Source of the DNA: Candidatus Eiseniibacteriota bacterium | Lineage (GTDB): Bacteria; Eisenbacteria; RBG-16-71-46 | Assembly: GCA_025360715.1 (NCBI GenBank) | Contig: JANYBS010000026.1 | Span: forward strand, 5,699 to 69,698 | Direction: 5' to 3' | DNA: 64,000 nt | Shown here: positions 22,407 to 37,928 of the stretch, piece by piece | Layout: each line of letters starts with the position of its first letter | Position numbering within the stretch: the first letter of the stretch is position 1 | Position numbers and translations under genes: made by a program | Notes under the pieces: model-generated | Databases searched by the model: none | Seen by the model: the letters and a program-made list of their open reading frames with translations, nothing else | What the model was told of the DNA's origin: nothing

Positions 22407-24671
22407 TCAGTGCAGGACCACGACCCGGGCGGCGCCTTCACGACCGCCGCCGTGCGCGTGAACGAAATAGATGCCCGGGCGGACCCGCTCGCCATTCAAG
22501 TCATAACCATCCCAGACCACGCGGTCGTTCGCGTCAGCGACAAACCGCCGCAGAACGCGGCCGTTCAGGTCCAGGATCTCCCCTTGGTACGCGGTGGTGT
22601 TGCCCGACAGCCGCAGCTCGAACCCGATGCCGGTCTGCGTGACCGGGTTCGGATAGATCTTGATCCGCAGCGCAGCCGGACGCGGTGCCGGCGGCGGCGT
22701 GTAGTTCGGGTCGTAGCGGTTCATGCCCGCCGCGGTTCCTATCCAGACGACGCCGCTGACGGGATCGACGGAGATCGCGCGCACCTCGTTGTCGGCGAGC
22801 GGCGAGTTGTCCGCCTTGAAGTCCACGAACGGCTTGCCCGGCGAGAACACGCGCACGCCGTCGACCGAGCCGACATAGACGCTGCCGTCGGGCCCCACCG
22901 CAAGTGGATGCACCGCGCCGCGCGGAGCGGGGCCGGCTGCGAGAGGCAGACTCGACTGCACACTGCGCGTGGTGCCGCGCAGGCGCAACAGGCTGCTCGT
23001 GGTGAGCACCCAGATCGAATCGCCGCGCGCCACGATGCCGAAGATGTCGAGATTGCTCGTGGCCTGCACGACCGAGAACATGCCCGCGTGCGCCAAGTGA
23101 TCGCCCGTGAGTTGCGCGACCGCGACTCCCGTGCCTGGGAAACCCGCCCACAACGACGCACCCGATGCGCTCACCTGCACGGCGAGCGCGCGCACCTGAT
23201 TGTCGGGGATCCCGGAGTTGGTGGTCTTATACGTCTCGATCAGCGCGCCAGCCGTATCGTACACCGCGATGCCCACCGGCGGACGGCCGCCGCGATCGGG
23301 CGTGTCGGCGCCGATGAACACATAGCCGCTGCTGTCGACACAACTCGACCAGCCGAGCGTGTACAGCGAGAGCGTATCGCTGGAGCCCGGAGACACGACC
23401 AGATGGTCGAAGTGCGGCGGGACCACGGAGTCGTCAAAGCGCTCCACGGCGAAGTCCCAGTTCGTGACCCACTTGCGGCCGCGGCGATCGCGCTGCAGCG
23501 CGAACGCAAAGGAGGAATTGATGAACGTCGTGTCCTGGGAAGCGCCGGCGCTGACAGGCAGCCAGTTGCGCCACTGCGTGCCGTCGAAGCGGCTCACGCC
23601 TTCGCCGAAGGTGCAGACATATACACGCGAGCCATCGGCGAGGATGTTCTGCACGCTGTTGCCTGCCGGCGCCGGCGGAAAGCGCCGGGGCCATGCAGCG
23701 GCGAAATCCTGCTCCCACAGCGCGCCGCCTGCGAAGCCGAACGCGTGATTCGCCGCATCGACCGTGACCTCGGAGCCACCATCGTCGGTCCCGTCGGCGA
23801 CCGGCGCGCCGCCGACCTGCGCCCACAGGTTCGTGACCCACTCGAACGTGCCGGAGCTTGAGATCGACAGCATGCGGCCGAAGTCATCGCGCACGCGTTT
23901 CGTGGCGCCGTTACCGGCCGCCAGTCCCCACGTGTGCGCATTGCGGTCCCACCGATAGGTGGCGGCGCCGGCGAGCACGAAGATCTCGCGGCCATCCGTG
24001 ACCATGCCATCGCACTTGTGCGTGAGCAGGCCCGTGTTCACGGTCGACCAGTTCGCCAACTGTTCCGAGATGCGCGCGATCGCAACGCCCCCCTGTGTGG
24101 CCACGAACAGCGAATCGCCATACACGACGATGCCGGTCACACGATCATCGGCGAACGGCGACAGCGCGCCGGAATCGGGGATGCGGCCCGCGATCTCGCG
24201 GCCGTTCCACAGCGCGATGCCGCGCGGCGTGCCGATCCACATGGTGTCGCCGTCGGCGCGCAGGACCGAGACGGTGTCCGACGGCAGGCCGTCGAACGCG
24301 TTGATGAGGTCCCAGCTCGTACGATCCGCCGACAAACGGCTCAGCCCCAGCCCGGGCGTTCCGCACCACACCCGGCCGGAGCGATCGAAGGCCATCGTCG
24401 TGATGTGGTTGCTCGCCAGGCCGCCCGGCTCGCGCGTCGAGGACTCGAAGCGGCCTTCCGACCGCAGGTAGCGCACCAGGCCGGCTTCACCCGTGGCGAT
24501 CCACACGGTATCGGCGCCGGCGACGAGGTCGTTGCACGTGTAGGTCTTCAGGAACGTCTGCCACTGCCCTGCCGCCCGCGCGGGCGCCGCGAGAAGCACG
24601 AGCGAGGCGCACATCGGGAGCAGCAGGAGCGAAAGGAGCACGGCGATGCGGCGCAGCATGGCGTACGGCAT
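22407..24671 (-). CDS. Secreted beta-propeller protein (PorZ-like) with C-terminal FlgD-Ig/T9SS-like domain
   Basis: Signal peptide ending ARA; repeated GLASNHI/GLPSDTV/SGIPDNQV/SPLADNEV + W-x-GT-x-x-G propeller blades; C-terminal IYPNP...WDGYDLNGERVRPGIYFV. Start re-set to 24671. Confidence 0.75.
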   Translation of the reverse strand: MPYAMLRRIAVLLSLLLLPMCASLVLLAAPARAAGQWQTFLKTYTCNDLVAGADTVWIATGEAGLVRYLRSEGRFESSTREPGGLASNHITTMAFDRSGRVWCGTPGLGLSRLSADRTSWDLINAFDGLPSDTVSVLRADGDTMWIGTPRGIALWNGREIAGRIPDSGALSPFADDRVTGIVVYGDSLFVATQGGVAIARISEQLANWSTVNTGLLTHKCDGMVTDGREIFVLAGAATYRWDRNAHTWGLAAGNGATKRVRDDFGRMLSISSSGTFEWVTNLWAQVGGAPVADGTDDGGSEVTVDAANHAFGFAGGALWEQDFAAAWPRRFPPAPAGNSVQNILADGSRVYVCTFGEGVSRFDGTQWRNWLPVSAGASQDTTFINSSFAFALQRDRRGRKWVTNWDFAVERFDDSVVPPHFDHLVVSPGSSDTLSLYTLGWSSCVDSSGYVFIGADTPDRGGRPPVGIAVYDTAGALIETYKTTNSGIPDNQVRALAVQVSASGASLWAGFPGTGVAVAQLTGDHLAHAGMFSVVQATSNLDIFGIVARGDSIWVLTTSSLLRLRGTTRSVQSSLPLAAGPAPRGAVHPLAVGPDGSVYVGSVDGVRVFSPGKPFVDFKADNSPLADNEVRAISVDPVSGVVWIGTAAGMNRYDPNYTPPPAPRPAALRIKIYPNPVTQTGIGFELRLSGNTTAYQGEILDLNGRVLRRFVADANDRVVWDGYDLNGERVRPGIYFVHAHGGGREGAARVVVLH

Positions 24672-24676
24672 TCGGT

Positions 24677-25393
24677 TCACTCCAGTCGGCCGAGCAGGTC
24701 GAGCAGGCGGAGCTTCCAGACCATCCCGGCGGCTTCCCAGATGATCTTCTTGTTCATCTTGGACGTGCCGAGCTGGCGGTCGACGAAGATGATGGGGATC
24801 TCGACGATACGAAAACCCTTCTTCCAGCAGCGGAACGACATCTCGATCTGGAACGAGTAGCCCTCGGACTGCACCTTGTCGAGGCGGATGCCTTCGAGCG
24901 CGCGGCGGCGGAAGCACTTGTATCCGCCGGTGGCGTCGCGCAGCGGTAGCCCGGTCACGATGCGCGAATACACATTGGCGCTATACGAGAGAATGAGCCG
25001 CGAGAGCGGCCAGTTCATGACCGTGACACCCTTGATGTAGCGCGAACCCAACACGATGTCAGCGTTCTCGGCAGCCTTGAGGAACTCCCCGATCGCGCCC
25101 GGGTCATGCGAGAAGTCCGCATCCATCTCGAAGATGTACTCGGCGCCGTTGTTGAGCGCGTAGCGGAAGCCATCGCGATACGCCGAGCCCAGGCCCATCT
25201 TGCCGGGACGCTTGAGCAGGTGGATGCGCGTCTCGGACTGCATGCGCCGTTCGACGATGGCCGCGGTGCCGTCGGGCGAGTTGTCATCGACGATGAGGAT
25301 GTCGAGACCCCACGGCAGCCCCAGGACCTTGTCGAGGATCGCTTCGATGTTCTCGCACTCATTGTAAGTGGGAACGATGACGAGCTTCTCCAT
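24677..25393 (-). CDS. Polyprenol-monophosphomannose synthase (DPM1/Ppm1-like GT2)
   Basis: IVPTYNE, VDDNSPDGT, GLGSAY, MDADFSH, DATGGYKCFR, GYSFQIE, FVDRQLGTSKM. Confidence 0.92.
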   Translation of the reverse strand: MEKLVIVPTYNECENIEAILDKVLGLPWGLDILIVDDNSPDGTAAIVERRMQSETRIHLLKRPGKMGLGSAYRDGFRYALNNGAEYIFEMDADFSHDPGAIGEFLKAAENADIVLGSRYIKGVTVMNWPLSRLILSYSANVYSRIVTGLPLRDATGGYKCFRRRALEGIRLDKVQSEGYSFQIEMSFRCWKKGFRIVEIPIIFVDRQLGTSKMNKKIIWEAAGMVWKLRLLDLLGRLE

Positions 25394-27873
25394 CAGAGCA
25401 CCCCCGCAGCCGCAGCCGCGATCGCGCCCGCTTCGTCCGGGCCGGCGGCGGGCGGCCGGCGGCGATCGTTGTAGACCCCCGCGAACAGCAACAGCAGAGC
25501 GGCGGCGACGCTCACCAGCGACAGGGTCACACCGGTGCGCATGACGCGCGACGCGAAATGGAAGTTCACCTGATGCTCTCCTGCCGGCACCGCGACCGCG
25601 CGCAACGCATGATCCGCGCGCAGCATCTGGGCCTTCTGGCCGTCGACCGTCACGGTCCAGTCGGGGTAGTACAGATCGGCCAGCCGCAGCAGCCCGGCGC
25701 CCGGCGTCTGAACCTTGATGTCCACATCGTGCAGGCCGTATTTCGTGATCGTCGCGGTGGCGCCAGTCACATTGCCGAGCGTGACGCCCGGTGCCTGTGT
25801 GAGCCAGGTGAAGTTCGCAGGATCATGCACGCCGGCCGTGATCGAATCGATGGCCGCCGTGCCGGTATCGGCCACCACACCGTACGCGCCGACCACCATG
25901 GCGCGCGGCATGGCTGTGAGGTTCTCGTAGACGCTCTGCGAACCTTGGAAAGCCAGCTTGAGGAATGGCGGCGTCTGCTCGGGCGGCAGTGCGCGGCTGA
26001 GCACGACGTAGCGCACGTTGAGCAATCCCCACCAGCGCGGGGAATTCATCACACCATTGGGCGCCGTGCGGTCGAGGATGTCCTGGAACAACCGCGGCTT
26101 CGCGGCGTGATAGCCGTTGAGGGTGGCCAGGCCGAAACCCGCAAGACGATTGTCGCGCAGGTTCTCGGGCAGGTACGTGCGGAAGCTGCCCCACGGGCCC
26201 TGCTTCTGCAGCCAGTCCACGACGTCGTCGCGGCCCACGTCCAGGCTTGCCGACTGCACCTCGCCGATCACCGGCTGCATGACCGAGGTGCTGATCGGGA
26301 ACAAGTCGAACATGAGCATCACGAGCACACCCAGCGATGCCATGAATGGTGCGAGCTTTCCGCGCACCGTGAACCACGCGAGTGCGATCACCACCAGCCC
26401 GGTCACGCCCACACGCAGCAGGTCGCCCGCGAACATCTGGAACGCGGCCGCCGCGGCATCCGGCGGGAACTGCGCCTTGCTCGCAGTGGCGAGCCCCACG
26501 TACCAGCTGCGCAGGCCGTCCTGGCCCACGACAGCGGCGAGCAGCATGACGCCAAGTAGCGCGCCCATCACCTGCAGCAGCCGCTCCAGACCGGCGTCGC
26601 GTTGCTTGGGATCGCGGCCTGCTTCGAGGATCGCGCTCCAGCCCCACGCGGCGCCCACGGCGATCGCGAGCTGGAAGAGGATGATGATCATGACCGGGAT
26701 GCGGAAGCGGTTGAAGAGCGGCACATGATCGTAGAGGAAGCCGTAGAGCGGGAAATTGTGCCCGAATGACACGAACACCGAGAAGAGCCCCATGACCAGC
26801 GCGAACACACGCGCCGTGCCCTTGGCGCCGTTCGCGCGCGCGAGTGCGACGATCGCGAGCAGTATCGCGACGATGCCTACAAATGCATTGGGGTAATCGG
26901 TGAACGGCATGCCGCCCCAGTAGGTGCCGCCGCCGAAGCCCACCCAGTTAGGCAGGAAGACGGCCGGCCATTCATAGAGCGCCATCGACCACTGCGTCGC
27001 GTAGTCCATGCCCGCGCCGCCGCCACCGCCGCCGCTGCGCACGGAGTACGCGGCGTAATCCTTGAGCGGCAGGTTGTAGAAGCCGGCCACACCGAAAGCC
27101 AAGCCGGCCGCCACAGCGAGTGCGAGTGCGCGCACGACCTTGGCGCCTGCCTGCTTCGGGTCACGCGCGGCCGCGAGCACCTCGACACCGGCGTACAGCC
27201 CCACCGCCATCCATGTGTAGAAGCAGATCTGCACGTGGCCGCGCAGGAACTGGAATCCGCCCGCGAGACCGAGCCAGCCCAGGTCGCTCAGGCTGCCGCG
27301 GCGCAGCCAGCGCGCCGTGAGCCACACCATGAGCGGCAGGTATGCGGAGTCCACGAGCTGGCTGCCGTGGCCATGCGCGCCGACCGCGACCAGGTTGGGC
27401 GCGAACATGAAGATGACCGCGCCCATGAATGCGCCTTCGGCGCGCGCACCCCACTCGCGCGCGAGCTGGTACGTGAAGAGCGCGCCCAGAAAGTAGTAGA
27501 GCAGCAGCCACGTCATGTCGGGCAGTACGGGCACGGCCTTCTGCAGCAGGCCGAGCGGCCAGTCGGGCGGATAGATGAGCGGGTTGTAGGCGCCGCTGGC
27601 GAAGCTGGGCATGCCCAGGAACACGAACGGGTTCCAGAGCGGGTACACGTGCTCATGCCAGAGCGACTGCTCGCCGATGCGCACGAAGCCCGCAGGGGCG
27701 ACGGCGTCGGGCGAGACGAATGTCTTGCCGCCGAGCGATACCTCGTGGAAGAACAAGATGGTGATCACGGCGAGCGCCAGCGCCACCCATTTCAGGGACA
27801 GGGCGGCGGACGGCGTCAGGCCGCGAGCGGGCTTCGTATCGCGACGGGACTTCGGGAGCTTGGTTTCGGCCAT
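25393..27873 (-). CDS. YfhO-family multi-TM membrane protein (GT-C)
   Basis: PLWNPFVFLGMP, many TM helices, LLNVRYV, C-terminal YYPDWTVTVDG...ADHALRAVAVPAGEHQVNFHF, characteristic of YfhO. Confidence 0.85.
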   Translation of the reverse strand: MAETKLPKSRRDTKPARGLTPSAALSLKWVALALAVITILFFHEVSLGGKTFVSPDAVAPAGFVRIGEQSLWHEHVYPLWNPFVFLGMPSFASGAYNPLIYPPDWPLGLLQKAVPVLPDMTWLLLYYFLGALFTYQLAREWGARAEGAFMGAVIFMFAPNLVAVGAHGHGSQLVDSAYLPLMVWLTARWLRRGSLSDLGWLGLAGGFQFLRGHVQICFYTWMAVGLYAGVEVLAAARDPKQAGAKVVRALALAVAAGLAFGVAGFYNLPLKDYAAYSVRSGGGGGGAGMDYATQWSMALYEWPAVFLPNWVGFGGGTYWGGMPFTDYPNAFVGIVAILLAIVALARANGAKGTARVFALVMGLFSVFVSFGHNFPLYGFLYDHVPLFNRFRIPVMIIILFQLAIAVGAAWGWSAILEAGRDPKQRDAGLERLLQVMGALLGVMLLAAVVGQDGLRSWYVGLATASKAQFPPDAAAAAFQMFAGDLLRVGVTGLVVIALAWFTVRGKLAPFMASLGVLVMLMFDLFPISTSVMQPVIGEVQSASLDVGRDDVVDWLQKQGPWGSFRTYLPENLRDNRLAGFGLATLNGYHAAKPRLFQDILDRTAPNGVMNSPRWWGLLNVRYVVLSRALPPEQTPPFLKLAFQGSQSVYENLTAMPRAMVVGAYGVVADTGTAAIDSITAGVHDPANFTWLTQAPGVTLGNVTGATATITKYGLHDVDIKVQTPGAGLLRLADLYYPDWTVTVDGQKAQMLRADHALRAVAVPAGEHQVNFHFASRVMRTGVTLSLVSVAAALLLLFAGVYNDRRRPPAAGPDEAGAIAAAAAGVL

Positions 27874-27898
27874 GGTCTCGCTGAGAAGGTCAGGGTCT

Positions 27899-29062
27899 TC
27901 AGGCGGCCCGCAGGCGGGCTTCGATCTCGTTCACCATCCGTGCTGCCAGCGCATCCCAGTCGTGGGGTGCGGACATCGCGCAGCGCCGGGCGCGGTCCGC
28001 AGGTGCATCGAGCGCGACTGCAAGCGCACGGCTCACTTCATCTGTCGTGGTCGCGAAGAGAAGGTCGGGAGAACGCTCCTGAAGATCGAGGACCGGTGTG
28101 GTGATGACCGGAAGTCCGGCAGCGAGATACTGGTAGACCTTGTTCGGATTGATCCCCTGCACGAAGGGATCCGCGGCCCGGAACGGAATCACGCCCACGT
28201 CGAGTCCCTGCATGTAAGCAGGCACATCGGCATAGGGACGCTGTCCCAGCACCGCCACGCCCTCGCGCCGGCGGAAACCTTCCACCTGCGCGTCGGTCGC
28301 GGCCGTACCCGGTCCAATCAATACCACGGTGCCTCCCCGACGGTTCCGGCGGAGCGCTTCGAGGATCTCGAAATCAAGGAAATGGCTGAGCAGTCCGACA
28401 TAGCCGATGAGCGGTCGCGGCAGCGCGGCCAAGTCCTCAGGCAGCGCTCGCGGCTCCATGAACTGCGCCCTCTCGACACCGTTCCCGAGCAGGATCAAGG
28501 GTCGGTCGATCTCCCCGGCGAGCTGACGACGGTAATACTCCGAGACCACGAAGACCGCATCCGCCTGGCCGATGGTGCGATGCCAATACGGGCGCGCCCA
28601 AGGCGGGGTCACCGAGAACTGGAAAGGACTATCGTTGAAGTCATAGAGTACCAGCTTCTTGCGGAGCCGCGAAAGCAGTCCCGGCGCGTAGATGTTGCTG
28701 GCCATGACGATGGGCGATTCCGCCACACGCAGCCGACGCAGCATGTGCCCCAGGTAGAGCTCAGCGCCCAGCTCGATGGCGGTCCGGCCGGCCGCCGTGC
28801 CCGCGAGGGCATTGTAGGCCCCACTCTGGGTGCCGGGCTTGAGGAAGGGCACCGTGAAATAGGTCACCCGTCCCTCGTGCCGCGGCGTCCAGGGGTCGTC
28901 CGCGCCGCCCCCGGGCGGCTGGGCGAAGAACACCCGCCAGTCCTTGGGGAAGCGCGAGAGCAGGAACTGCTTCCGGGTGCGGAAATACCCCCAGCGGACC
29001 TCGGAGAGGACCACGAGGTCGCGGGAGCCATCAGAAGAACGAGGGGTGGGTTCGGTCAGCAT
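27899..29062 (-). CDS. Glycosyltransferase (TuaH-like GT4)
   Basis: W...RKQFLLSR, NGVE, IGYVG, PNKVYQYLAAGLPVI; start re-set to ATG 29062. Confidence 0.85.
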   Translation of the reverse strand: MLTEPTPRSSDGSRDLVVLSEVRWGYFRTRKQFLLSRFPKDWRVFFAQPPGGGADDPWTPRHEGRVTYFTVPFLKPGTQSGAYNALAGTAAGRTAIELGAELYLGHMLRRLRVAESPIVMASNIYAPGLLSRLRKKLVLYDFNDSPFQFSVTPPWARPYWHRTIGQADAVFVVSEYYRRQLAGEIDRPLILLGNGVERAQFMEPRALPEDLAALPRPLIGYVGLLSHFLDFEILEALRRNRRGGTVVLIGPGTAATDAQVEGFRRREGVAVLGQRPYADVPAYMQGLDVGVIPFRAADPFVQGINPNKVYQYLAAGLPVITTPVLDLQERSPDLLFATTTDEVSRALAVALDAPADRARRCAMSAPHDWDALAARMVNEIEARLRAA

Positions 29063-29127
29063 CCACGGCAAGGTAGCCGCAACCAGCGCGGCATGCCAGA
29101 GGGTGCGGGCCCGGCGCGGCCTTCGAC

Positions 29128-29847
29128 CTAACGGCCTGCGAGCGGGAAGCGGCTCCAAGCCGAGTGCGCGATCGGGTCGCGGCCCGAGAGCGCGACCACC
29201 TGCCACGTGATCATCTCGCCTGTGGGCACACGCTGCGCGAGTGCAGCGAGCGAGTCGGCCTCGATGCTCAGGCGCGTCCCGGCCACGGGGCCGTAGCGCG
29301 CGACTTCATGCACCTGCGCGTCGAAGACCTGCACATGGTAGAAGCCAGCGCCCGGATAGGCGTCCCAGCTCAGGGTGACGCCGGCGCCAGCATCGATGGC
29401 CTGAGCGCCCTGCACCTGGGCGGTGCCCGCGTCGCCACGGAACTGAGCGGGCGGATCGGTTCGGCGCATGAGCACGAGCGTGGAGACGAGCGCCAGGCAC
29501 GCGGCGAGCGCCAGGAAGCCGGGCAGGTTCGAACGCCGCGCGCGTGGCGAGGACATGGGCAGAGGCTTGGGCTTGGGCTGCAGATCGGGCTGCGGCGTGG
29601 GAAGCAGCGTGGGAAGCAGCGTGGGCTTCTCGTGCGCGCCGATGATTCCGGGCACCATCGCCGCGAGACGCGCCTCGGCCTGCGCGAGTTCTGCTGCATC
29701 TGCGACATCGAGCGCCAGGAACTCCTGCATCGCCGTGAGCGTGGCCTGGCAGCGTTCGCAGCCTTCCACGTGCGCGCGCTCGGCGTCGCCTTGCGGCTGC
29801 GCGAGGATGCGCGTGAGCTGTTCGACCGGCGGATGGCTCGCGCTCAT
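29128..29847 (-). CDS. Transmembrane zinc-binding anti-sigma factor (zf-HC2/ZAS) with extracytoplasmic domain
   Basis: N-terminal H...HVEGCERC (HxxxCxxC), Pro-rich linker, TM LPGFLALAACLALVSTLVLM, then FRG and a beta-rich FN3/Ig-like domain; ATGA overlap with the sigma gene. Confidence 0.8.
   Translation of the reverse strand: MSASHPPVEQLTRILAQPQGDAERAHVEGCERCQATLTAMQEFLALDVADAAELAQAEARLAAMVPGIIGAHEKPTLLPTLLPTPQPDLQPKPKPLPMSSPRARRSNLPGFLALAACLALVSTLVLMRRTDPPAQFRGDAGTAQVQGAQAIDAGAGVTLSWDAYPGAGFYHVQVFDAQVHEVARYGPVAGTRLSIEADSLAALAQRVPTGEMITWQVVALSGRDPIAHSAWSRFPLAGR
29595..29625. repeat. 12-bp tandem repeat (GCGTGGGAAGCA x ~2.6) encoding PTLL-PTLL-PT
   Basis: Read directly; lies in the anti-sigma cytoplasmic linker. 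Confidence 0.85.
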
Positions 29848-30461
29848 CGCTGCGCGCCCCCGGATGCGTCGCCACCGCGCATGAAGTCGGCGCCGAGTTC
29901 CGCGCGCAGCTTGCGGCGCGCCGACTGCAGCACGCCGCGCGCGCCGCTCGCGCCCTCAAGGCCGAGTAGTCGCGTGATGTCGTCGACTGGCAGCCCTTCC
30001 TGCGCGCGCAGCCAGATCACCTTGCGCTCGAGCGGACCGAGCACCGAGTCGATGGCGCACACGACGCGCTCGGCGCGCTCGCGCTCGAGGCGCGACACTT
30101 CCAAGCCGGGCTGATCATCCATGAGCATCTCCACGTCGGCCTCCTCGTCGCGTGACAGCGGCCGCTTGCGCAGGATCGACAAGCAACGATTGCGCGCGAT
30201 GGTGAAGAACCACGCACCGACCGTGCCGCGTGAGTCATACCGGGGCAACGCGAGATACGCGCGAAGCAGGCACTCCTGCGTCAGGTCGAGCGCGCTCTCA
30301 CGGTCGCGGACCATCCGGAGACACCAGAGGTAGATCCGGCTCCGCCACCGATCGAGCAGCATCCCGGCTGCGCGACGCCCCTCCTCCCCCTGCGGGTCGG
30401 ACTGGAAGATCGCGATCAGCCGTTCGTCATCCCCGGCATCACCCGGGAGTGCTTCCTTCAC
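29844..30461 (-). CDS. ECF RNA polymerase sigma factor
   Basis: DDERLI, region 2 ALDLTQECLLRAY...WFFTIARNRCLS, region 4 LERKVIWLR...ARRKLR. Confidence 0.93.
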   Translation of the reverse strand: MKEALPGDAGDDERLIAIFQSDPQGEEGRRAAGMLLDRWRSRIYLWCLRMVRDRESALDLTQECLLRAYLALPRYDSRGTVGAWFFTIARNRCLSILRKRPLSRDEEADVEMLMDDQPGLEVSRLERERAERVVCAIDSVLGPLERKVIWLRAQEGLPVDDITRLLGLEGASGARGVLQSARRKLRAELGADFMRGGDASGGAQR

Positions 30462-30507
30462 TGGGAACCTCAGGATGATCGATCCGGCACAACATTTCTC
30501 TCGGCGC

Positions 30508-33210
30508 TCAGGGAACGATGCCGAAAATGCTGCGCCGGGGCAACTTGGCCGTCACGAGCGGATCGCCCACCAAGGTGAAGCCCGCCCAATGCAAGGGCGC
30601 CGCCGTCGCCGGGTCGCGGCGCAGCGCGAGTTGCGCCTGACGCAACGCCTCACCGGCCGGCAGGCCGCGCTCGAGCGCCGTATAGAAGGCCTGCGTGACG
30701 GCCTTGCCGTCGGCGTCCGGGATCGGCCAGCGTGCGCCAACCACCGCGCGCGCGCCAGCGCGCAGGAAGGCGCCCGCCAGGCCGCGCTCTCCCGGCTGGG
30801 CCTGACGCAGGTCGCTCTGCACGGCGGTGCAGCCGGTGAGTACGGCAAGGCGCGCGCGCAGGCGCACCGGCACGAGGTCGTGCACCCGCAGATAGGCGTC
30901 CGAGCGCGAGGGATCGCCGAGGAGGATGCCGGAGCGCCACGGGTTCTCGGGATCGGTATCGAAGTGCGCACTCACGTGCACGACATCGGCGGTGCCCATG
31001 CGCAGAAGCGCTCGATCGGCGTCGGCGCGCGACCGCGGCGCGCGCAGCGTGACACCGGCGTAGCGTCCCAAGAGCCAGCGCGTCTCATCCGCGACGCCCG
31101 CGAGGCGTTGCCCCTTCGCATCCACGCTGTTCGTGAGCACGAACAGACTCGTTGCCGCGCTGCTTTCGTGCGTGGCTCGCAAGCTCGCGAACAAACAGAG
31201 CGACGGCAGACTCACGGTCTCGAAGCGGTCGACGAGCGCGCGAGCATCGCCGGGCGCGATCAGCATCGGCCACGGGTACGCCTGCCCCCATGCGCCATCG
31301 ACCACCAGCAGCCGTTTCGCGTGGCGCAGTTCGCCCGCCAGCGGCGCGAGCAGGTCACGGCCGAGCTCCAGCGCAAGCGAGCGCTGCATGGGCGACAGAT
31401 CGGCCCCGGCCCTTTGCGCCAATTCGTGCAGCTGTTGCACGCGCGCCAACCCGCGCATGGCGCCAGGCACCGCATAGCTGCGAACACTCGCGCGCGTCAA
31501 GGCGAACACGAACGAGCTGTCCTGGCCCGGGAGGATCTCGAGCAGCACCTCGCCCGGCTGCAGCACCGAACCCTGCAATACCGGGAGCGTGGCAGCTTTC
31601 AGCGGCGTGCCCAGAACCTGCGTGTGCAGAGGCTCGATCTCGTGGTAGCGGTCGAACGCGAGCCGTAAGCGCTCGCCCGCGGACTCGCCGGGCGCAGGAG
31701 TCGCGACGATGCGCACGAGATCGCCCCAGAAGATCGTGCCTCGGTCGAAGCCGCGCGAGTCCCACATGGGATCATCCGATTTGAACCGCCCGCTCGCAGT
31801 CTGTCGAAAGGCCGCAAGCGCTGCCTCGCGCGCGCCCAAGGGGTCGCCCGCTGCCATGCGCGCCAGCGCGAGATCGTTGAGCACCGCGATCGTCCTGCGC
31901 TCGCGCGTCGCGTCGGGCACGTCCCGCAGCAACGCCTCAAGGCGGCGCACGGCGCCGCGGTGATCGCCCGCCGCGCCAAGGACACGCGCCGCCATGACGC
32001 GAACTTGCAGCAATTCGGAATCCGACGCCGGGCGGAACCGGCTCACATCGGCGACCCAGCCATCGAGCGACTTGACCGCTTCGTCCACACGCCCGGCGCG
32101 CCCCAGCGCGAGCGCGCGTTCGGAGATCAGCGCAGGCTCGGGCCGCAGATGGAAAGAGTCCACGACCGCCCACGCCGAACGCAATTGCTCGAACCCTTCA
32201 TCAAAGCGATCGAGCGCGCGCAGGGCCATGCCATAGCGCATGTGGTAGCTCGCGCGGGTGCTCGGCCGCAGCCGCGCCGAGAGCAGGGGTCGCGCCGCCT
32301 CGAGCACCTGCACGGCGCGCGCAGGCTCGTCGAGCCGGAAGTGCGTCACCGCGAGGTTCACGCTCGATTGCAATTGTTCGTCTGCGCGACCGGCGCGGCG
32401 CTGCAATTCGATCGCCTGCTCATACGCGGGCACGGCGTCGGCGGGATCGCCGTGCTCCCATTCGAGCGTCGCCAGATTGTTGAGCGCGGAGGCAAGGTTG
32501 TACGAATCGTTCTGAGCGCGCGCCTCGCGGATCACATCGGCGTAGACGACGCGCGCCTCATCGAGGCGCCCCTCGTGCACGAGCGCACGGCCCAGTCCCA
32601 CCTGCGCCACACGGCGCGACAGGCCGTCCCACTGCGGCGAGAGCAATCGCAGCGCCGCGCGGTAGCCGCGCTCCGCGGCCGCATGGCGCTCCGCGAGCAG
32701 GTCGATGTACGCCAGGTCGAGCCGCGCTTGTCCTTCGTATCGCGGCAGGCGCGCTGCACGTGAAGCAGCAAGCAGCCGCTTCAGCACCGGCGCCGCCTCG
32801 CTCGCCGTGCCCGCGAGCACATCGCCCAACGCGTGCGAGAAGAGCGCTTGGCAGAGCAGCAGCGTGTCGCGCGCCGCGGCGCCGCGCGCGATGCCGGCAG
32901 ACGCGATGCGCTGCGCCGCCTCGCGCTGGCCGCGGAACGCGAGCAGCGTTGCGCGGTGGGCGTCGGCGACGATGCGCAGGTCGGAGTCCGCGACCGCTGC
33001 AGGCGACTGCGCCAGCTCGGTGAGCCAGCGCTCGGACTCGGCGCCGGCATCGCGCGCGCGCAACGAATCGTAGCGCACGAACACGTCGCGATAGCGCTCC
33101 GAGGGACGCGCGCTGGTGCGCGCGGCACGCGCCGGTACGAGCGCGACCAGACATGTCAGCGAGCAGAGGAGCGCAACGATGAGCCGGGCGGGCGGGAGGC
33201 GCGCGTGCAT
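30508..33210 (-). CDS. TPR + CHAT (caspase HetF-associated) protease with N-terminal signal peptide
   Basis: TPRs (LASALNNLATL, SSVNLAVTH), CHAT motifs LLVVDG...PW, VVHVSAH, LAVLTGC, GLAGAFLRAGARAVV, FYTAL, HWAGFTLVG; His/Cys dyad present; start re-set to ATG 33210. Confidence 0.9.
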   Translation of the reverse strand: MHARLPPARLIVALLCSLTCLVALVPARAARTSARPSERYRDVFVRYDSLRARDAGAESERWLTELAQSPAAVADSDLRIVADAHRATLLAFRGQREAAQRIASAGIARGAAARDTLLLCQALFSHALGDVLAGTASEAAPVLKRLLAASRAARLPRYEGQARLDLAYIDLLAERHAAAERGYRAALRLLSPQWDGLSRRVAQVGLGRALVHEGRLDEARVVYADVIREARAQNDSYNLASALNNLATLEWEHGDPADAVPAYEQAIELQRRAGRADEQLQSSVNLAVTHFRLDEPARAVQVLEAARPLLSARLRPSTRASYHMRYGMALRALDRFDEGFEQLRSAWAVVDSFHLRPEPALISERALALGRAGRVDEAVKSLDGWVADVSRFRPASDSELLQVRVMAARVLGAAGDHRGAVRRLEALLRDVPDATRERRTIAVLNDLALARMAAGDPLGAREAALAAFRQTASGRFKSDDPMWDSRGFDRGTIFWGDLVRIVATPAPGESAGERLRLAFDRYHEIEPLHTQVLGTPLKAATLPVLQGSVLQPGEVLLEILPGQDSSFVFALTRASVRSYAVPGAMRGLARVQQLHELAQRAGADLSPMQRSLALELGRDLLAPLAGELRHAKRLLVVDGAWGQAYPWPMLIAPGDARALVDRFETVSLPSLCLFASLRATHESSAATSLFVLTNSVDAKGQRLAGVADETRWLLGRYAGVTLRAPRSRADADRALLRMGTADVVHVSAHFDTDPENPWRSGILLGDPSRSDAYLRVHDLVPVRLRARLAVLTGCTAVQSDLRQAQPGERGLAGAFLRAGARAVVGARWPIPDADGKAVTQAFYTALERGLPAGEALRQAQLALRRDPATAAPLHWAGFTLVGDPLVTAKLPRRSIFGIVP

Positions 33211-33331
33211 GTGAGCGTCACCCTGCCCCCGCGGTGTGCAGCGGTCAAGCAGGCTTGGCGCTTTGCGGCGAAAGCACCGCGGCGCGCATCCCAAGGGACG
33301 CGCGCCGCGAGACTTTGTTCTCTTGCACCGG

Positions 33332-35407
33332 CTACCCGGCGAGGATGCCAGCGGCCGTCTCGTCCTCGAAGCGTTCGGTCGCTTCGACGAATGTGAGATG
33401 CCTGCCCGCGTTCGGGCTGTCATTCGAGCTGCGCTCGGTCAGGCGCGGATCCTTGGCCACGTACTGGTGCGACCAAGACTCCAGGCTCAACCAGCGCCAG
33501 ACCTGAAGCCCGATCTCGCGCCGGCCAGCGAGGTATTCCTCCAACTCCGCCTGCAACACATCGCCGCGCACCCAGTCCTGGAACGGACCCGGCCGGCTCA
33601 GGCGCTTGCGCACCTCGGCGGAGTAGCGGCCGCGCAACCACAGGTCGGTAGGCGTCTCGAAACCCATCTTGTCACGACGGTCCAGGATCGACTTGGGGAT
33701 CCGGTCGTGTAGCGCCCGGCGCAGGATCGCTTTCGTGGTGACGCCATCGAGCTTCTGCGTATCGGGCAGTGCGAACGCGAACTCCGCCAGGCGATAGTCC
33801 AGGAACGGCAGGCGCGTCTCGATGCCGAACGCCATCGAGTCGCGATCCTCGTAGCGCAGCAGGCTCGGCAACTGGCGCTGCAACGTGTCGAACTCCAGCT
33901 GCCGCCACAGATACGAACGCGAGCCGTGCGGCATGTGGCCGACGGTGCTGGGAGCATTGGCCAGAAGGCTCGAAAGCACCTTGTCCTTGCCCTGGCCGTA
34001 GCGGCCGCGCAGCGCACCCACGAGCCCTGCAGGCAGCCACGGTTCGAAGGTATGCAGCAGCGTGGTGGCAAAGCCCAAGCGGTCGCTCACCTTGCCCCAC
34101 AGCGACTGGAAGCCGGCCCAGTCGCCGGCGGCGACCAGGTCGCGCAGGCGCGCGGGCAGATACCGGAAGTAGCCCGCCAGGATCTCGTCGCCGCCCTGGC
34201 CATCGAGGAGCACCTTGAGGCCCTTGTCGCGCGCGAGCTGCATGACCTTGTATTGCGAGTACACGCCGGGGCCGGCCGTAGGCTCGTCCTGCGCTCGCGC
34301 AAGCGTGTCGAACACGCTCCAGAAGTCGCCGCCATCGGGCACGATGATGTGGCTCGTGGCGCCGCTGGCCTCGACCGCCGCGCGGATGTAGGGCCGCTCA
34401 TCGAACGCGGGGCCCTCGTCGTAGGCGCACGAGAACGCGTGCAGGCCCTTGTTGGCGAGCGTGGAAGCGGTCGTGATCACCGCGCTCGAGTCGAGTCCGC
34501 CCGACAGACAGGAGCCGACCTCGACGTCGGCGCGCAGCCGCAGCTTCACGGAGTCGGTGAACAGCCGCTCGAACTCAGCCTCCAGGGACCTGGCATCGCC
34601 CCCCACGAAGCGACTGGGATCGACGCTCCACCAGCGACGCACGCTCAGACCGTTGTCGCTCATGGTCAGGCAGTGGCCCGCAGGCAGCTGCCAGAGACCT
34701 TCGAAGAACGTCTGCGCCTCGTGATCGACCCAGTCGAGCGCGAGCAGGTCACGGATGGCCGACAGCCGCGGCGTGATGCGGTGCGGCTGCGTGAGCACGA
34801 GCGCCTTGGGCTCGGATGCGAAGGCGAACCGCTGACCATCGAACTGGTAGTAGAACGGCTTCACACCGAAGCGGTCACGCGCGCAGAAAAGCTGCTTCTT
34901 GGCACCGTCCCAGATCGCGAGTGCGAACATGCCATTGAAATGATGCAGGCAGTCCTCGCCCCACTTCTGGTAGGCCGCGAGGATGACTTCGGTGTCGGAT
35001 GTGCTCACGAACCGCGCCCCGTCCTTCTCGAGTTCGGCGCGCAGCTCGATGTGGTTGTAGACCTCGCCGTTGAACACGATCCAATCGCGGCCGTCAGCGC
35101 CGCAGAGCGGCTGGTGACCACTGGGCTTGAGGTCGACGATGGAGAGCCGGCGGTGCACCAGGCCGACGCCGTAGTCGGCGGTGCGCTGGTCGCCACGCGC
35201 CTTCGCAGGCGCATAGGGCAGGCCGGACTGGAACACATCGGCAGGCGTATCGGCGCCGCCGTGCGTGAAGGACTGGCCGCCCTTGGCATCGATGAGCACC
35301 ATGCCTTCGTCGTCGGGACCGCGATGGCGGAGCAGTTGCCCCATGCGATGCAGCCGTCCGAGATCGGCGCGTCCTTGTCGATCGTAGAGTCCCGCGATGC
35401 CGCACAT
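33332..35407 (-). CDS. asnB: Asparagine synthase (glutamine-hydrolysing) family amidotransferase
   Basis: MCGIAG, HRGPD, HRRLSIVD, FNGEVYN, RDRFGVKP, LSGGLDSS, DGQGGDE, RLPFLD. Probably a polysaccharide amidotransferase given context. Confidence 0.93.
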   Translation of the reverse strand: MCGIAGLYDRQGRADLGRLHRMGQLLRHRGPDDEGMVLIDAKGGQSFTHGGADTPADVFQSGLPYAPAKARGDQRTADYGVGLVHRRLSIVDLKPSGHQPLCGADGRDWIVFNGEVYNHIELRAELEKDGARFVSTSDTEVILAAYQKWGEDCLHHFNGMFALAIWDGAKKQLFCARDRFGVKPFYYQFDGQRFAFASEPKALVLTQPHRITPRLSAIRDLLALDWVDHEAQTFFEGLWQLPAGHCLTMSDNGLSVRRWWSVDPSRFVGGDARSLEAEFERLFTDSVKLRLRADVEVGSCLSGGLDSSAVITTASTLANKGLHAFSCAYDEGPAFDERPYIRAAVEASGATSHIIVPDGGDFWSVFDTLARAQDEPTAGPGVYSQYKVMQLARDKGLKVLLDGQGGDEILAGYFRYLPARLRDLVAAGDWAGFQSLWGKVSDRLGFATTLLHTFEPWLPAGLVGALRGRYGQGKDKVLSSLLANAPSTVGHMPHGSRSYLWRQLEFDTLQRQLPSLLRYEDRDSMAFGIETRLPFLDYRLAEFAFALPDTQKLDGVTTKAILRRALHDRIPKSILDRRDKMGFETPTDLWLRGRYSAEVRKRLSRPGPFQDWVRGDVLQAELEEYLAGRREIGLQVWRWLSLESWSHQYVAKDPRLTERSSNDSPNAGRHLTFVEATERFEDETAAGILAG

Positions 35408-35472
35408 GGTGTGTCACTCCTTCAAGGCCGTGGCCCCGCTTTGTTCACCGCTTGCGACCGGAGTCGCGGACA

Positions 35473-36921
35473 TTACTGCGCGAACGGACGCGCGCGGTGT
35501 TTCACCGCGCCGCGGTCCGTCCAGACTTCGAGCCGCCATGCCAGCCCTGCAAACAGCGCCAGCGCCGCGACCTTCACCCCTACGCCCCCCACCCCCGGTG
35601 GTGCGAGCCGCACTGCCGCCACCCCCAAGCCCAGAGCGCCCAGGAAGAGCAGCGCAAGACGCGCGCCCCGGTACGGCAAGGGATGCACTCTCTGGGCGAC
35701 GATGTAGGCGAACACGGCAGAAGATGCGTAGCCCATGCACGTGGCCGCAGCAGCGCCTTGCGCGCCGTAACGCGGCGTGAGCACGAGGTTCGCGAGCGTC
35801 GCCACCAGCGCAGCGCCGCCGGCCGTCCACACGATCAACGGCGTGCGAAGCGACAGGTTGATACCCAGAGCGGCCACATAGTAGGCCCCCTGTGCGACCG
35901 CCGCAAAGGCGAGCCAGAGCGCTGGGGCTGCGGCTGCGGCATATGACTTGGTGGCCAGCAGGCCCACGATCGTGGGCGCGAAGAGTCCGCACGCCAGCGC
36001 CCCGAACGACGCCACCGCCACATAGAGCGCGAAGACGCGCGCGAACAGCAAGCCGGAGCCCGGCTGTTTGGCTTGAGCGAAGGCCCAAGGTCCAAAGGCC
36101 AACTGGAACGCCGAGACCGCCATGGTCACGACCGCGAAGAACTTCATGGCCACTCCGTAGACGGCGACGGTCTCGAGGTTGGAATGCTGCTGCAGCGTAT
36201 AGCGGTCGACCGAGCTGATGATGCCGTAAGCGAACGACACCGGCATGAGCGGTGCGCCGTAGCGGAACATCTGGCGCAGTAACGTGCGGCTGAACCGCGG
36301 CTTGAGCGAATGCCGGCAGAACACCAGCCCCACGCACGCCGTGCCTGCATCCCCCAGCAGCTTCCCGTACAGCACACCGGCCACGCCAAGGTGTTTTCCG
36401 ATCACGAAGTAGAGCGTCAGGCCGCCCACGAGCACTGCTTGCGTCACGTTCAAAGCGATGAACTTCCACGGCTGGAAGGTCACGCGCAGCACATCGTTCG
36501 AGAACAGGCAGAACAACGTGAACGGCAGCGTCATCGCGCCGATGCGCAGGTACTTCGCGTAGGCCGCGCCGCCCAGGACGTGACTCGCGAGCCACGGCGC
36601 GGACAGCGCCAGGATCGCGGCAGCCGAGCCGCCCACGAGCAGGCGGAACACGAACGACGACGACACCATGCGGATGCGCGCTTCCCGGTCCGGCTGTTCG
36701 TAGAAGAATCGCGCGAGCGCACTGTCCATGCCGAATACCAGGACGAGCAGCACACTGGCGGAGTAGCTCAACACCAGGTCCGAGACCCCGAACTGCTGCT
36801 GCAGAAGCGCGCGCACGAGGACCGGCACCAAGAGCAGGTTCACGCCCTTGCCGAGCACCTGCCCCAGCCCATAGATGAGCGAGTCGCCCGACAGGCGCCG
36901 CAGCTGCTCGCGGATGTTCAT
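35473..36921 (-). CDS. Wzx-type oligosaccharide flippase
   Basis: SLIYGLG...LLLVPVL, ~12-14 TM helices, DRY, YGAQGAAAAT. Confidence 0.88.
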   Translation of the reverse strand: MNIREQLRRLSGDSLIYGLGQVLGKGVNLLLVPVLVRALLQQQFGVSDLVLSYSASVLLVLVFGMDSALARFFYEQPDREARIRMVSSSFVFRLLVGGSAAAILALSAPWLASHVLGGAAYAKYLRIGAMTLPFTLFCLFSNDVLRVTFQPWKFIALNVTQAVLVGGLTLYFVIGKHLGVAGVLYGKLLGDAGTACVGLVFCRHSLKPRFSRTLLRQMFRYGAPLMPVSFAYGIISSVDRYTLQQHSNLETVAVYGVAMKFFAVVTMAVSAFQLAFGPWAFAQAKQPGSGLLFARVFALYVAVASFGALACGLFAPTIVGLLATKSYAAAAAPALWLAFAAVAQGAYYVAALGINLSLRTPLIVWTAGGAALVATLANLVLTPRYGAQGAAAATCMGYASSAVFAYIVAQRVHPLPYRGARLALLFLGALGLGVAAVRLAPPGVGGVGVKVAALALFAGLAWRLEVWTDRGAVKHRARPFAQ

Positions 36922-37928
36922 CGTGCACCGATCGCTTGGTAGATCTCGATGAGCCGCGCTGCCACGACCGGCGCCGCATGCTCGCGCTCTACATAGGCGC
37001 GACCCTCATCGCCAAGGCGCTCGCGCCGTGGCGTGTCGGTGAGCACGGCCTCGAGATCGGCGGCGATCGTCGCGACGCTCGTGCGCACGATCGGAGCGCC
37101 ATGCATGCGAGGCTCGAAATCCGGGCGGATGTGACACAGCGCCGGCTTGCCCACCGCCATGGCTTCGACACTCACCATGCCATACCAACCCATGAAGACC
37201 TGGTCCACGAACACGTCGCACTCGCGCATCTGCCGTTGCAGCTCGGGCCACGGCACTTTCTCGACGGTGCGGAACTCGATGTTCGGGAACTTCGGACGCA
37301 GCAGATCGAACGCCGCCTCGATGTGGCGCGTGCCCTTGATGAGACGATTCGTCGGGGCGTGGAGCACCAACTTGGGTTGCGCACGCACAGCCTGCTGCGG
37401 GTAGTCCGGCAGCCACACCGCCACGTGCACCTGCTTCGCGCGCGGCGCGGACTCCAGCAGATCAGGCGTGGACACGATCTCGGCATCGGCGAAGCGCGCG
37501 GCCGAGGCGAGGATGCGCTTCTGGCGCGCCGGATGGCAGAACGGGTCGCACTCGGTGCACGTGGAGGCCGAGTGCGTGGCCAGCATGTGCGCGCGGTTGC
37601 GGATATCGCAGCCGTGATAGTGGAACACCACCTTCTTGCCCAGCGCGTGATAGAGCGGCAGGTCGAAATTATGCGGCGGGATCATGGTGCGGCCGAAATG
37701 AAAATGGAACACGTCCCACTTTCCCAGATGCCGCGCCAGGTTGCCCGCGTAGCCCAGGTAGCGCCGCGGCGGCGACATGGCGTCGTACGGACGCATCTCG
37801 TCGACCGCGTACTGCGCGAAAGTGGGATTGGTCGCCAGCGAGTGCGCCTCGACTCCCAGATCGCGCAACGCCCGCGCGAGGATGCTCGTCTGCCCGGCGA
37901 TCTCGGAGGGCGCGTGCAGTACCTTCAT
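36918..37928 (-). CDS. Glycosyltransferase family 4-like
   Basis: HYHGCDIR, HAPTNRLIKGT, DQVFMGWYGMVSVEAMAVGKP; start re-set to ATG 37928. Confidence 0.82.
   Translation of the reverse strand: MKVLHAPSEIAGQTSILARALRDLGVEAHSLATNPTFAQYAVDEMRPYDAMSPPRRYLGYAGNLARHLGKWDVFHFHFGRTMIPPHNFDLPLYHALGKKVVFHYHGCDIRNRAHMLATHSASTCTECDPFCHPARQKRILASAARFADAEIVSTPDLLESAPRAKQVHVAVWLPDYPQQAVRAQPKLVLHAPTNRLIKGTRHIEAAFDLLRPKFPNIEFRTVEKVPWPELQRQMRECDVFVDQVFMGWYGMVSVEAMAVGKPALCHIRPDFEPRMHGAPIVRTSVATIAADLEAVLTDTPRRERLGDEGRAYVEREHAAPVVAARLIEIYQAIGAR

Follow-up and report, generated by a model that had tools for sequence, protein, structure and literature searches.

A gene for a caspase-like protease of the CHAT type stands beside the genes for a sigma factor of the extracytoplasmic function (ECF) type and for a membrane-spanning anti-sigma factor inside a glycan-synthesis cluster of Candidatus Eiseniibacteriota, which raises the question of whether the three genes form a signalling system in which the protease cuts the anti-sigma factor, and whether such a system has anything to do with the glycan genes around it. 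The locus was analysed within a stretch of 64,000 nucleotides, called the window here (GenBank assembly GCA_025360715.1, contig JANYBS010000026.1, positions 5,699 to 69,698 of the forward strand), from a genome of about 70% G+C; coordinates are positions in this window unless another contig is named. Together the three genes make up a conserved module, met repeatedly in several phyla of uncultured bacteria. We propose tentatively, at somewhat short of an even chance, that they encode an envelope signalling system complete in itself, which follows the design of DdvA/DdvS of Myxococcus xanthus in split form and in which the protease cuts the anti-sigma factor.

All three genes of this triad are on the minus strand, between positions 29128 and 33210, in the order protease, sigma factor, anti-sigma factor. 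The first (33210 to 30508) encodes a tetratricopeptide repeat (TPR)-CHAT protein of 900 residues when read from the methionine preceding its hydrophobic segment, the frame being open up to 33423. The second (30461 to 29844) encodes a sigma factor of 205 residues that matches Pfam Sigma70_r2 and TIGR02937, and the third (29847 to 29128) an anti-sigma factor of 239 residues, described below from its translation, an AlphaFold2 (AF2) model and an alignment of homologues. The ATG of the anti-sigma gene overlaps the TGA of the sigma gene as ATGA, and the two are presumably translationally coupled. The original prediction, made from the sequence of this segment, had described an exported CHAT protease, a sigma factor of the ECF type and a transmembrane (TM) anti-sigma factor, and every string that it quoted was found in its place on the minus strand.

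Co-occurrence of the three genes elsewhere, which that prediction had named as a way of checking the cassette, was borne out by a neighbourhood survey of three sets of loci, which overlap in part and include related genomes. The anti-sigma factor has homologues in 106 of the 206 genomes that represent the phylum, a single genome giving up to 9 matches. Among the best 20 of these matches in relatives, the CHAT gene lies directly upstream of the sigma and anti-sigma genes in 14, the contig start cuts the locus in 2, and 4 have none. A second set of 20 anti-sigma matches, picked one per genome from other families of the class, has a CHAT gene in 18; one of the remaining two is cut by the contig start, and the other lacks an upstream CHAT gene and lies on a contig that ends just past the anti-sigma gene. 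The third set came from a scan seeded with the sigma factor alignment, with one genome per species, and comprises 80 loci, 58 of them at E <= 1e-60 to a hidden Markov model of the sigma group, a model made from the sigma factors adjoining these same anti-sigma factors. A CHAT gene is found in 50 of the 58 sigma-group loci, as against only 1 of the 22 more distant ECF loci, and an anti-sigma gene adjoins the sigma gene in 56 of the 58. The order is CHAT-sigma-anti-sigma in 41 of the 50 and sigma-anti-sigma-CHAT in 8, and in 1 the CHAT gene is on the opposite strand. According to the record titles, the triads belong to Eisenbacteria, Krumholzibacteriota and Latescibacterota, with a few loci under other taxon labels that are perhaps binning artefacts. 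Within the window genome itself, five of seven CHAT genes are directly beside an ECF-type sigma gene, the other two being cut by contig ends. The association of CHAT with ECF sigma factors is far beyond chance.

The TPR-CHAT protein begins with a predicted Sec signal peptide read from its sequence, MHARLPPARLIVALLCSLTCLVALVPARA followed by A, with an A-x-A cleavage motif (residues 1-29, positions 33124..33210). About 13 TPR-like helix pairs follow at residues ~36-530 in the AF2 model, several Pfam TPR families match the protein, and the CHAT domain occupies residues 614-883 (Pfam PF12770, E 1.4e-42, 146.6 bits against a curated cut-off of 24). The model (mean predicted local distance difference test score, pLDDT, 85.5) has an N-terminal helix that corresponds to the signal peptide, then an extended superhelix of TPRs, and an alpha/beta domain at its C-terminal end. 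Its best Foldseek matches are Csx29/craspase, separase and DdvA (E 1e-12 to 8e-16), so that a TPR superhelix followed by a C-terminal CHAT domain, the architecture of separase, Csx29 and DdvA, is matched in fold. A profile of the CHAT domain compared with the Protein Data Bank (PDB) finds DdvA first (chain 8rot_B, 9.1e-11; DdvA structures are PDB 8ROT and 8RW5), then separase (5e-7) and Csx29 (3e-4). Searches of the PDB with single sequences reached neither a CHAT structure nor an anti-sigma factor, and profile searches were needed.

The His/Cys dyad that the original prediction had called intact is so, in the motifs HVSAH (H745 and H749) and LTGC (C794). Both motifs are aligned within the profile match to DdvA: the predicted catalytic His749 (codon 30964..30966) falls on LATHG of chain 8rot_B, and the predicted catalytic Cys794 (codon 30829..30831) on VLAACEGG. 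All 20 aligned CHAT homologues keep H745, H749 and C794 unchanged.

Export of the protein, likewise part of the original claim, is predicted by its own signal peptide and by its relatives: in a non-redundant set of 57 full-length CHAT proteins encoded in triads, 52 begin with a hydrophobic segment near the N terminus, which is also present in the consensus of the CHAT alignment. In addition, 44 of the 57 carry a C-terminal hydrophobic anchor directly after the CHAT domain, a position that would bring the caspase-like active site to the membrane surface in most homologues. These proteins are therefore predicted to lie, as a rule, in the periplasm, their catalytic domain being kept next to the membrane.

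The anti-sigma factor contains an HxxxCxxC motif, a single TM helix and the string PPAQFRGDAG just beyond the membrane, all as originally read. The zinc motif (HVEGCERC; H26, C30 and C33, positions 29749..29772) is seen in the translation and in an alignment of 18 sequences from 14 genomes at about 30% identity, in which C30, R32, C33, A57, L61, R137, W161, Y170, V172 and A219 are invariant and H26 is at least 90% conserved. The AF2 model, built on 18 homologues, places H26, C30 and C33 in an N-terminal domain of helices 8-15, 22-29, 31-45 and 51-68, and an HxxxCxxC in such a domain is a mark of class I zinc-binding anti-sigma (ZAS) factors. A disordered Pro-rich linker joins this domain to the TM helix (residues ~108-127, positions 29467..29526; helix 111-128 in the model). 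Beyond the membrane, a stretch with pLDDT below 50 at residues 134-141 leads to a beta-sandwich resembling a fibronectin type III (FN3) domain (residues 149-235, positions 29143..29403, pLDDT ~86-96). Foldseek returned 33 PDB matches to the ectodomain at E <= 0.001, and those among the matches listed are mostly FN3 domains; profile matches to FN3 are weak. No Pfam family matches the anti-sigma factor, the NCBIfam model antisigma NF052375 stays below its cut-off (E 0.0068, 16.4 bits against 100), and homologues in a large protein collection are annotated as 'hypothetical protein' and carry no Pfam domain. A scan of metagenomes with the anti-sigma factor gave five short, weak matches only.

Most anti-sigma factors of the family have a further Cys ~15-20 residues before HxxxCxxC, giving a CHCC-type site as in DdvA. 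In the window protein (residues 1-6, positions 29845-29832) and two close orthologues (83% and 71% identity) this Cys is replaced by SHPP, and for this reason the zinc site of the window protein may use His5 as a ligand or have three ligands only.

The segment that would be cut is the juxtamembrane motif PPAQFRGDAG (residues 132-141, positions 29425..29454), where Arg137 (codon 29437-29439), followed by Gly138, forms the candidate site-1 cleavage site. Across 84 non-redundant members of the anti-sigma family the equivalent of Arg137 is present in 83, the remaining sequence being gapped there; Gly follows it in 64 and Leu, Val or Met precedes it in 68, as against at most 47 of the 84 for the commonest residue in neighbouring linker columns. 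The median distance from the TM helix to the conserved Arg is 12 residues, and AQFRG is kept in two metagenomic orthologues at 83% and 71% identity. The alignment of juxtamembrane motifs suggested in the original prediction thus places a conserved Arg, usually followed by Gly, in a linker predicted to be disordered, and site-1 cleavage between the two residues is plausible on these sequence grounds.

The sigma factor is of the ECF type (group IV), with sigma-2 and sigma-4 regions only and a length of about 200 residues; Sigma70_r2 matches at 5e-16, and TIGR02937 (sigma70-ECF), whose cut-off is 42.9 bits, reaches 66.2 bits on residues 31-188 of 205. No NCBIfam equivalog reaches its cut-off, and a named ECF group is not assignable from NCBIfam models. 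Since no curated ECF model reaches its cut-off, the sigma group of the triads may be an unclassified one. In an alignment of triad sigma factors Trp46 and Cys93 are invariant and Cys47 nearly so, and the sigma-4 region carries the signature SGARGVLQxARRKLR.

Observed here are the linkage of the genes, a predicted export, a dyad that is intact, the conservation and position of the motif, the folds and the presence of an M50 protease in the genome; we infer binding, cleavage and its site, a signal and a regulon, in the following scheme. The cytoplasmic zinc-binding domain of the anti-sigma factor would hold the ECF sigma factor at the inner membrane. On the periplasmic side, a short flexible linker would present the invariant [V/L]-R-G about 10 residues above the membrane, below the FN3-like domain. 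The TPR-CHAT protein would be exported and, in most homologues, tethered by a C-terminal TM helix with its active site at the membrane surface. A signal, probably received through the TPR superhelix, the FN3 domain or both, would then trigger a site-1 cut by the CHAT domain at or near R137|G138, after which a site-2 protease of the RseP type would clear the stub and release the sigma factor. Peptidase_M50 matches are present in the window genome, the best of them (1.8e-58) on contig C151.

Prediction of the complex between CHAT residues 30-900 and residues 128-239 of the anti-sigma ectodomain, in three runs and with three controls, gave an ipSAE of 0.32 (runs 0.32, 0.40 and 0.20) against 0.00 for the best control. 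The runs share at least 96% of their contacts, and the pLDDT of the partner is at least 74. The mark set for this score is passed by 116 of 157 complexes of solved structure and, among mismatched pairs, by 2 of 215; with an ipSAE of at most 0.60, no more than 18 of those 157 pass it, and the two passing mismatches both fall in this range. The prediction, one of the checks proposed originally, lends the pairing weak support in this way.

Several observations weigh against the CHAT protein as the site-1 protease, and of the original claim it is the linkage, predicted export, dyad and Arg motif that speak for it. The complex prediction is a weak pass, for which no interface is reported. The window protein and its nearest relatives lack the C-terminal anchor that the geometric argument needs. 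According to the accessible text of the DdvA paper, the CHAT activity of DdvA is itself unproven, H862A and C907A variants behaving like the wild type when the signal is absent; the same text has separases cutting after Arg and craspases after Met or Leu (PMC11506125), so that specificity for Arg is not general among CHAT proteases. No target promoter or regulon emerged from a consensus scan, a k-mer search or the flank survey described below. Eight sigma-group loci lack a CHAT gene: six of them have about 6 kb on both sides, one breaks off directly past the sigma gene, and one has no more than ~2 kb downstream. The R-G motif is just as well conserved in all 13 anti-sigma factors whose fetched stretch contains no CHAT gene, several of these stretches being cut. 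The motif therefore need not be specific to CHAT, and another protease or another function could explain it; CHAT paralogues elsewhere in those genomes could also act in trans.

The best-surviving alternative draws on these CHAT-less loci. In it, the TPR-CHAT protein is a co-sensor or guard that binds the FN3 ectodomain or the linker and gates a housekeeping site-1 protease at R-G, much as RseB guards RseA, its own protease activity being aimed elsewhere or at itself. In its favour, the motif is kept in the 13 pairs, the six loci with about 6 kb on both sides have no CHAT gene, three of the CHAT-less pairs face a protein of 883-947 residues with PPC and BNR-like matches instead, and TPR arrays usually mediate protein binding. 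The invariance of the His/Cys dyad in all 20 homologues argues for a catalytic role under selection, however, the anchor in 44 of the 57 triad proteins puts the CHAT domain and not the TPR array next to the membrane, and no second protease gene is conserved in the module. We consider the guard role unlikely, if with some weight of its own.

The three CHAT-less pairs just mentioned (L048, L054 and L057, in genomes G009, G015 and G001) face divergently encoded proteins, which may be alternative partners of such pairs. Those at L048 and L054 also adjoin open frames of more than 2000 residues with adhesin-like domain matches.

The protease might alternatively be the output of the sigma factor, the product of an autoregulated operon that processes other envelope or secreted proteins or serves in stress or cell death. 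ECF operons often carry their own effector genes, and in 41 of 50 loci the presumed operon starts with CHAT. The flank survey covered 35 proteins from 19 of 20 other triad loci (the nearest open reading frame, ORF, on each side, from 69 candidates with few skipped) and found neither a conserved fourth gene nor a regulon, the flanking proteins sharing no family except scattered FlgD_ig-like tails. Such C-terminal domains, typical of type IX secretion system (T9SS) cargo, are found in 5 of the 35 proteins, beside 4 of the 20 surveyed triads, and count in favour of an output role. Against this stands the fact that adjacency survives a changed gene order in the eight sigma-anti-sigma-CHAT loci, and that TPR-CHAT proteins stand beside ECF sigma factors with three other kinds of partner in the window genome, which fits a regulatory partnership better. 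A shared ECF-type promoter was not found either in 35 non-redundant upstream regions of CHAT-first triads, where a bipartite k-mer search reached a maximum of 8 against shuffle maxima of 6-8; the search is noisy and its outcome weak either way. An output role seems to us decidedly unlikely.

Two of the further loci of the window genome deserve description in their own right. On contig C28 (12347-16460, L191) an ECF-type sigma gene is followed by an ORF of 264 residues with a ZAS-like H-x4-C-x2-C and no evident TM helix, and this in turn by a TPR-CHAT protein that has no N-terminal hydrophobic segment; the triad has the look of a cytoplasmic version of the craspase/sigma logic that does without CRISPR. 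On contig C111 (6198-11864, L192) an ECF sigma gene is followed by one for a membrane Ser/Thr kinase that has a periplasmic DUF4384 domain and then by one for an exported TPR-CHAT protein. The periplasmic tail of the kinase contains SLRG, which resembles the anti-sigma motif, possibly by coincidence. An apparent fusion of 1301 residues in another genome (G104 C14; L196:4045-7950, minus strand) was rejected: its anti-sigma frame runs into a repeat-rich gene with beta-propeller-like domains and a T9SS tail, has no CHAT domain, and is probably a frameshift or assembly error. No protein of 435-2000 residues matched the anti-sigma profile, which is weak evidence that fusions of anti-sigma and CHAT are lacking.

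A role as a sensor of phages or other invaders that switches on defence genes, like DdvA/DdvS with its island of CRISPR and cyclic oligonucleotide-based antiphage signalling system (CBASS) genes, we rate as very unlikely. It gains from DdvA being the closest solved relative of the CHAT domain, from a family that is multi-copy and fast-evolving (up to 9 anti-sigma copies in one genome, and ~30% identity among the 18 aligned members from 14 genomes), from the insertion of the module in varied contexts, as in conflict systems, and from a weak PADLOC match to BovA on the CHAT region (1.7e-6). It is countered by the absence of defence genes among the 14 neighbouring ORFs of the window and among the 35 proteins encoded right beside the triads at 19 of 20 other loci, and by the sigma and anti-sigma factors having no PADLOC match.

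The genes surrounding the triad form a large co-oriented glycan-synthesis cluster (22407-41261). Upstream lies asnB (33332-35407, minus strand), which the original prediction had named as a flank and which matches Asn_synthase at 1.3e-74 (Pfam); downstream of the anti-sigma gene, also on the minus strand, lies a GT4-type glycosyltransferase gene (Glyco_trans_1_4, 4e-10, Pfam), followed by genes for a YfhO-like membrane protein, a GT2 glycosyltransferase and a PorZ-like T9SS protein. Besides these GT2, YfhO-like, GT4 and asnB genes, the cluster holds genes for a protein of 521 residues that has no assignment, a second GT4, a methyltransferase, another GT2 and a PMT-like protein, and it ends with the PorZ-like protein, which carries a T9SS C-terminal domain.

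Orthologues of asnB and of the GT4 gene (65-82% identity) are directly adjacent, with no triad between them, in 15 of 15 genomes of the same genus, conservation of the cluster having been checked for these two genes. Nucleotide comparisons (blastn) with three relatives show homology up to 29020 and again from 33431-33443 onwards, with a mere 40-114 bp between these points in the relatives; the segment lacking homology to same-genus relatives, 29021..33430, comprises the triad and its spacers. Because the two flanking genes are adjacent in all 15 genomes and homology breaks around the triad, the triad is an insertion of about 4.4 kb peculiar to this species, and its glycan location is no part of the design; the synteny check proposed originally answers in favour of an insertion. 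Homologues of the flanking genes were found at none of the other fetched triad loci except for a weak GT2 match (27% identity, L044), and at 19 of 20 other triad loci the genes next to the triad bear no relation to each other. The extension of the original prediction, by which the sigma factor would drive the downstream glycosylation and PorZ-like genes, could draw on their co-orientation with the triad, on the mere ~33-65 nt between the anti-sigma stop and the likely glycosyltransferase start, and on the lack of a terminator-like site between them, so that read-through is possible in this one genome, but the 15 triad-free genomes, the break of homology exactly around the triad and the different flanks at the other triad loci make such control extremely improbable, and as a conserved relationship it is largely refuted.

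A consensus scan over 28800-33600 did not turn up any sigma-70-like site; it gave a single terminator-like site, within the CHAT gene, where 1.6 are expected from shuffles. Start-codon calls are noisy in DNA of 70% G+C, and for this reason the negative promoter searches say little. Just past the asnB stop, at ~33277-33310 on the minus strand, lies a G+C-rich inverted repeat with a stem of ~9-10 bp and no T tract. The sequence TTGACC-N17-CAGGGT follows it and ends 9 nt before the CHAT start; its reading as a promoter is backed by neither the consensus scan nor comparison and was set aside. If it were one, the CHAT mRNA would be nearly leaderless.

The proposal of an operon-encoded site-1 protease matters for what it makes accessible. 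As far as its accessible text goes, the work on DdvA did not settle whether a CHAT domain in the periplasm acts on an anti-sigma factor as its site-1 protease, and in DdvA protease and substrate are one protein. The triad family has them in two genes, with a precise candidate site ~12 residues outside the membrane and dozens of natural variants, and the hypothesis is therefore directly testable. If it is true, caspase-like proteolysis joins the established routes of ECF sigma activation, and the recurrent linkage of CHAT and ECF genes, noted in several phyla and never explained, is accounted for. The locus also counsels caution in reading function from neighbours, the module being a species-specific insertion in a conserved glycan locus.

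Among described systems, DdvA/DdvS of M. xanthus is the closest precedent, one that the original prediction had overlooked; in the accessible text of its description, a role as site-1 protease is already proposed for the CHAT domain of the fused protein, the catalytic residues are named as H862 and C907, and the loss of DdvA is RseP-dependent once the TPR-CHAT domain is taken away (PMC11506125). As far as that text goes, both systems combine an ECF sigma factor, a single-pass anti-sigma factor of the ZAS type and a periplasmic TPR-CHAT region with a His/Cys dyad, and in both the CHAT domain is proposed as the site-1 protease acting on a juxtamembrane linker, followed by RseP. The systems differ in construction. 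In DdvA the TPR-CHAT region is fused to the anti-sigma factor in one dimeric protein of 991 residues that acts in trans on itself (PMC11506125), whereas the triad has a separate exported protease, usually with its own C-terminal anchor, and an anti-sigma factor with an FN3-like ectodomain instead. DdvA controls a CBASS/CRISPR island, while the neighbours of the window triad are glycan-synthesis genes; and fused DdvA-like proteins are reported there only from Myxococcota and one Comamonas species (PMC11506125), in contrast to the distribution of the triad over Eisenbacteria, Krumholzibacteriota and Latescibacterota. The module would therefore work like DdvA/DdvS and yet is not of the DdvA type, because the defining fusion is absent.

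The type III-E craspase offers a second likeness, in that the TPR-CHAT protein Csx29 cleaves Csx30, a protein that restrains a sigma factor; Csx29 chains are the top Foldseek matches (E 7.8e-16), with a weaker relation in sequence (3e-4). The craspase is described in the accessible text as cytoplasmic and activated by RNA through Cas7-11, and it cuts after Met or Leu (PMC11506125), whereas the CHAT protein of the triad has a signal peptide and its candidate P1 residue is Arg. No cas-related Pfam family was found among the 14 neighbouring ORFs of the window. The module is not a craspase, because there are no cas genes and the CHAT protein is predicted to be exported.

In classical regulated intramembrane proteolysis, represented by RseA/DegS/RseP and RsiW/PrsW/RasP, the first cut in a single-pass anti-sigma factor falls outside the membrane and the second is made by an M50 site-2 protease, and an M50 protease is also present in the window genome. 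The triad would differ in its site-1 protease, a caspase-like enzyme of clan CD that shares an operon with its substrate, and not a serine protease or metalloprotease encoded elsewhere.

Links of caspase-like domains to ECF sigma factors have been recorded in two further settings. ECF54 of Actinobacteria has CHAT domains at 0.71 copies per ECF in the accessible supplement (PMC7826278); the group is described there with subtilase and carboxypeptidase-regulatory-like genes and no anti-sigma factor (PMC7826278), whereas the triad has an anti-sigma factor and neither kind of gene. As far as that description goes, the module is not ECF54, since ECF54 lacks an anti-sigma factor and has a different gene context. 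Genes for Caspase-EACC2 occur with an ECF sigma factor as well as a DUF1822 TPR protein in the accessible text of a survey from the Aravind group (PMC8195603). Neither system, as these sources present it, has the anti-sigma factor of the triad with its ZAS domain, TM helix, R-G motif and FN3-like domain. The main text of the ECF re-classification paper makes no mention of CHAT, and a literature search, made mostly without subscription journals, found no paper on a split pair of periplasmic CHAT protein and anti-sigma factor.

Set against these systems, the module is real, conserved and uncharacterised, and the mechanism itself has already been published as a model for fused DdvA, as its accessible text presents it. 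Two arguments are new: an invariant Arg-Gly lies in a juxtamembrane segment that is disordered, and a membrane tether brings the CHAT domain next to this motif. A wider interpretation is possible, if on balance doubtful: the triads may belong to a large undescribed family of periplasmic, membrane-tethered caspase-like proteases that serve ECF sigma signalling as dedicated, operon-encoded site-1 proteases and cut their cognate anti-sigma factors at an invariant juxtamembrane Arg-Gly. The family would be the free-standing, two-protein form of the logic of fused DdvA and of the CRISPR craspase, diversified into many paralogous sensor channels per genome in Eisenbacteria and allied phyla, beside variants in the same genome that pair CHAT with a soluble anti-sigma factor or a Ser/Thr kinase.

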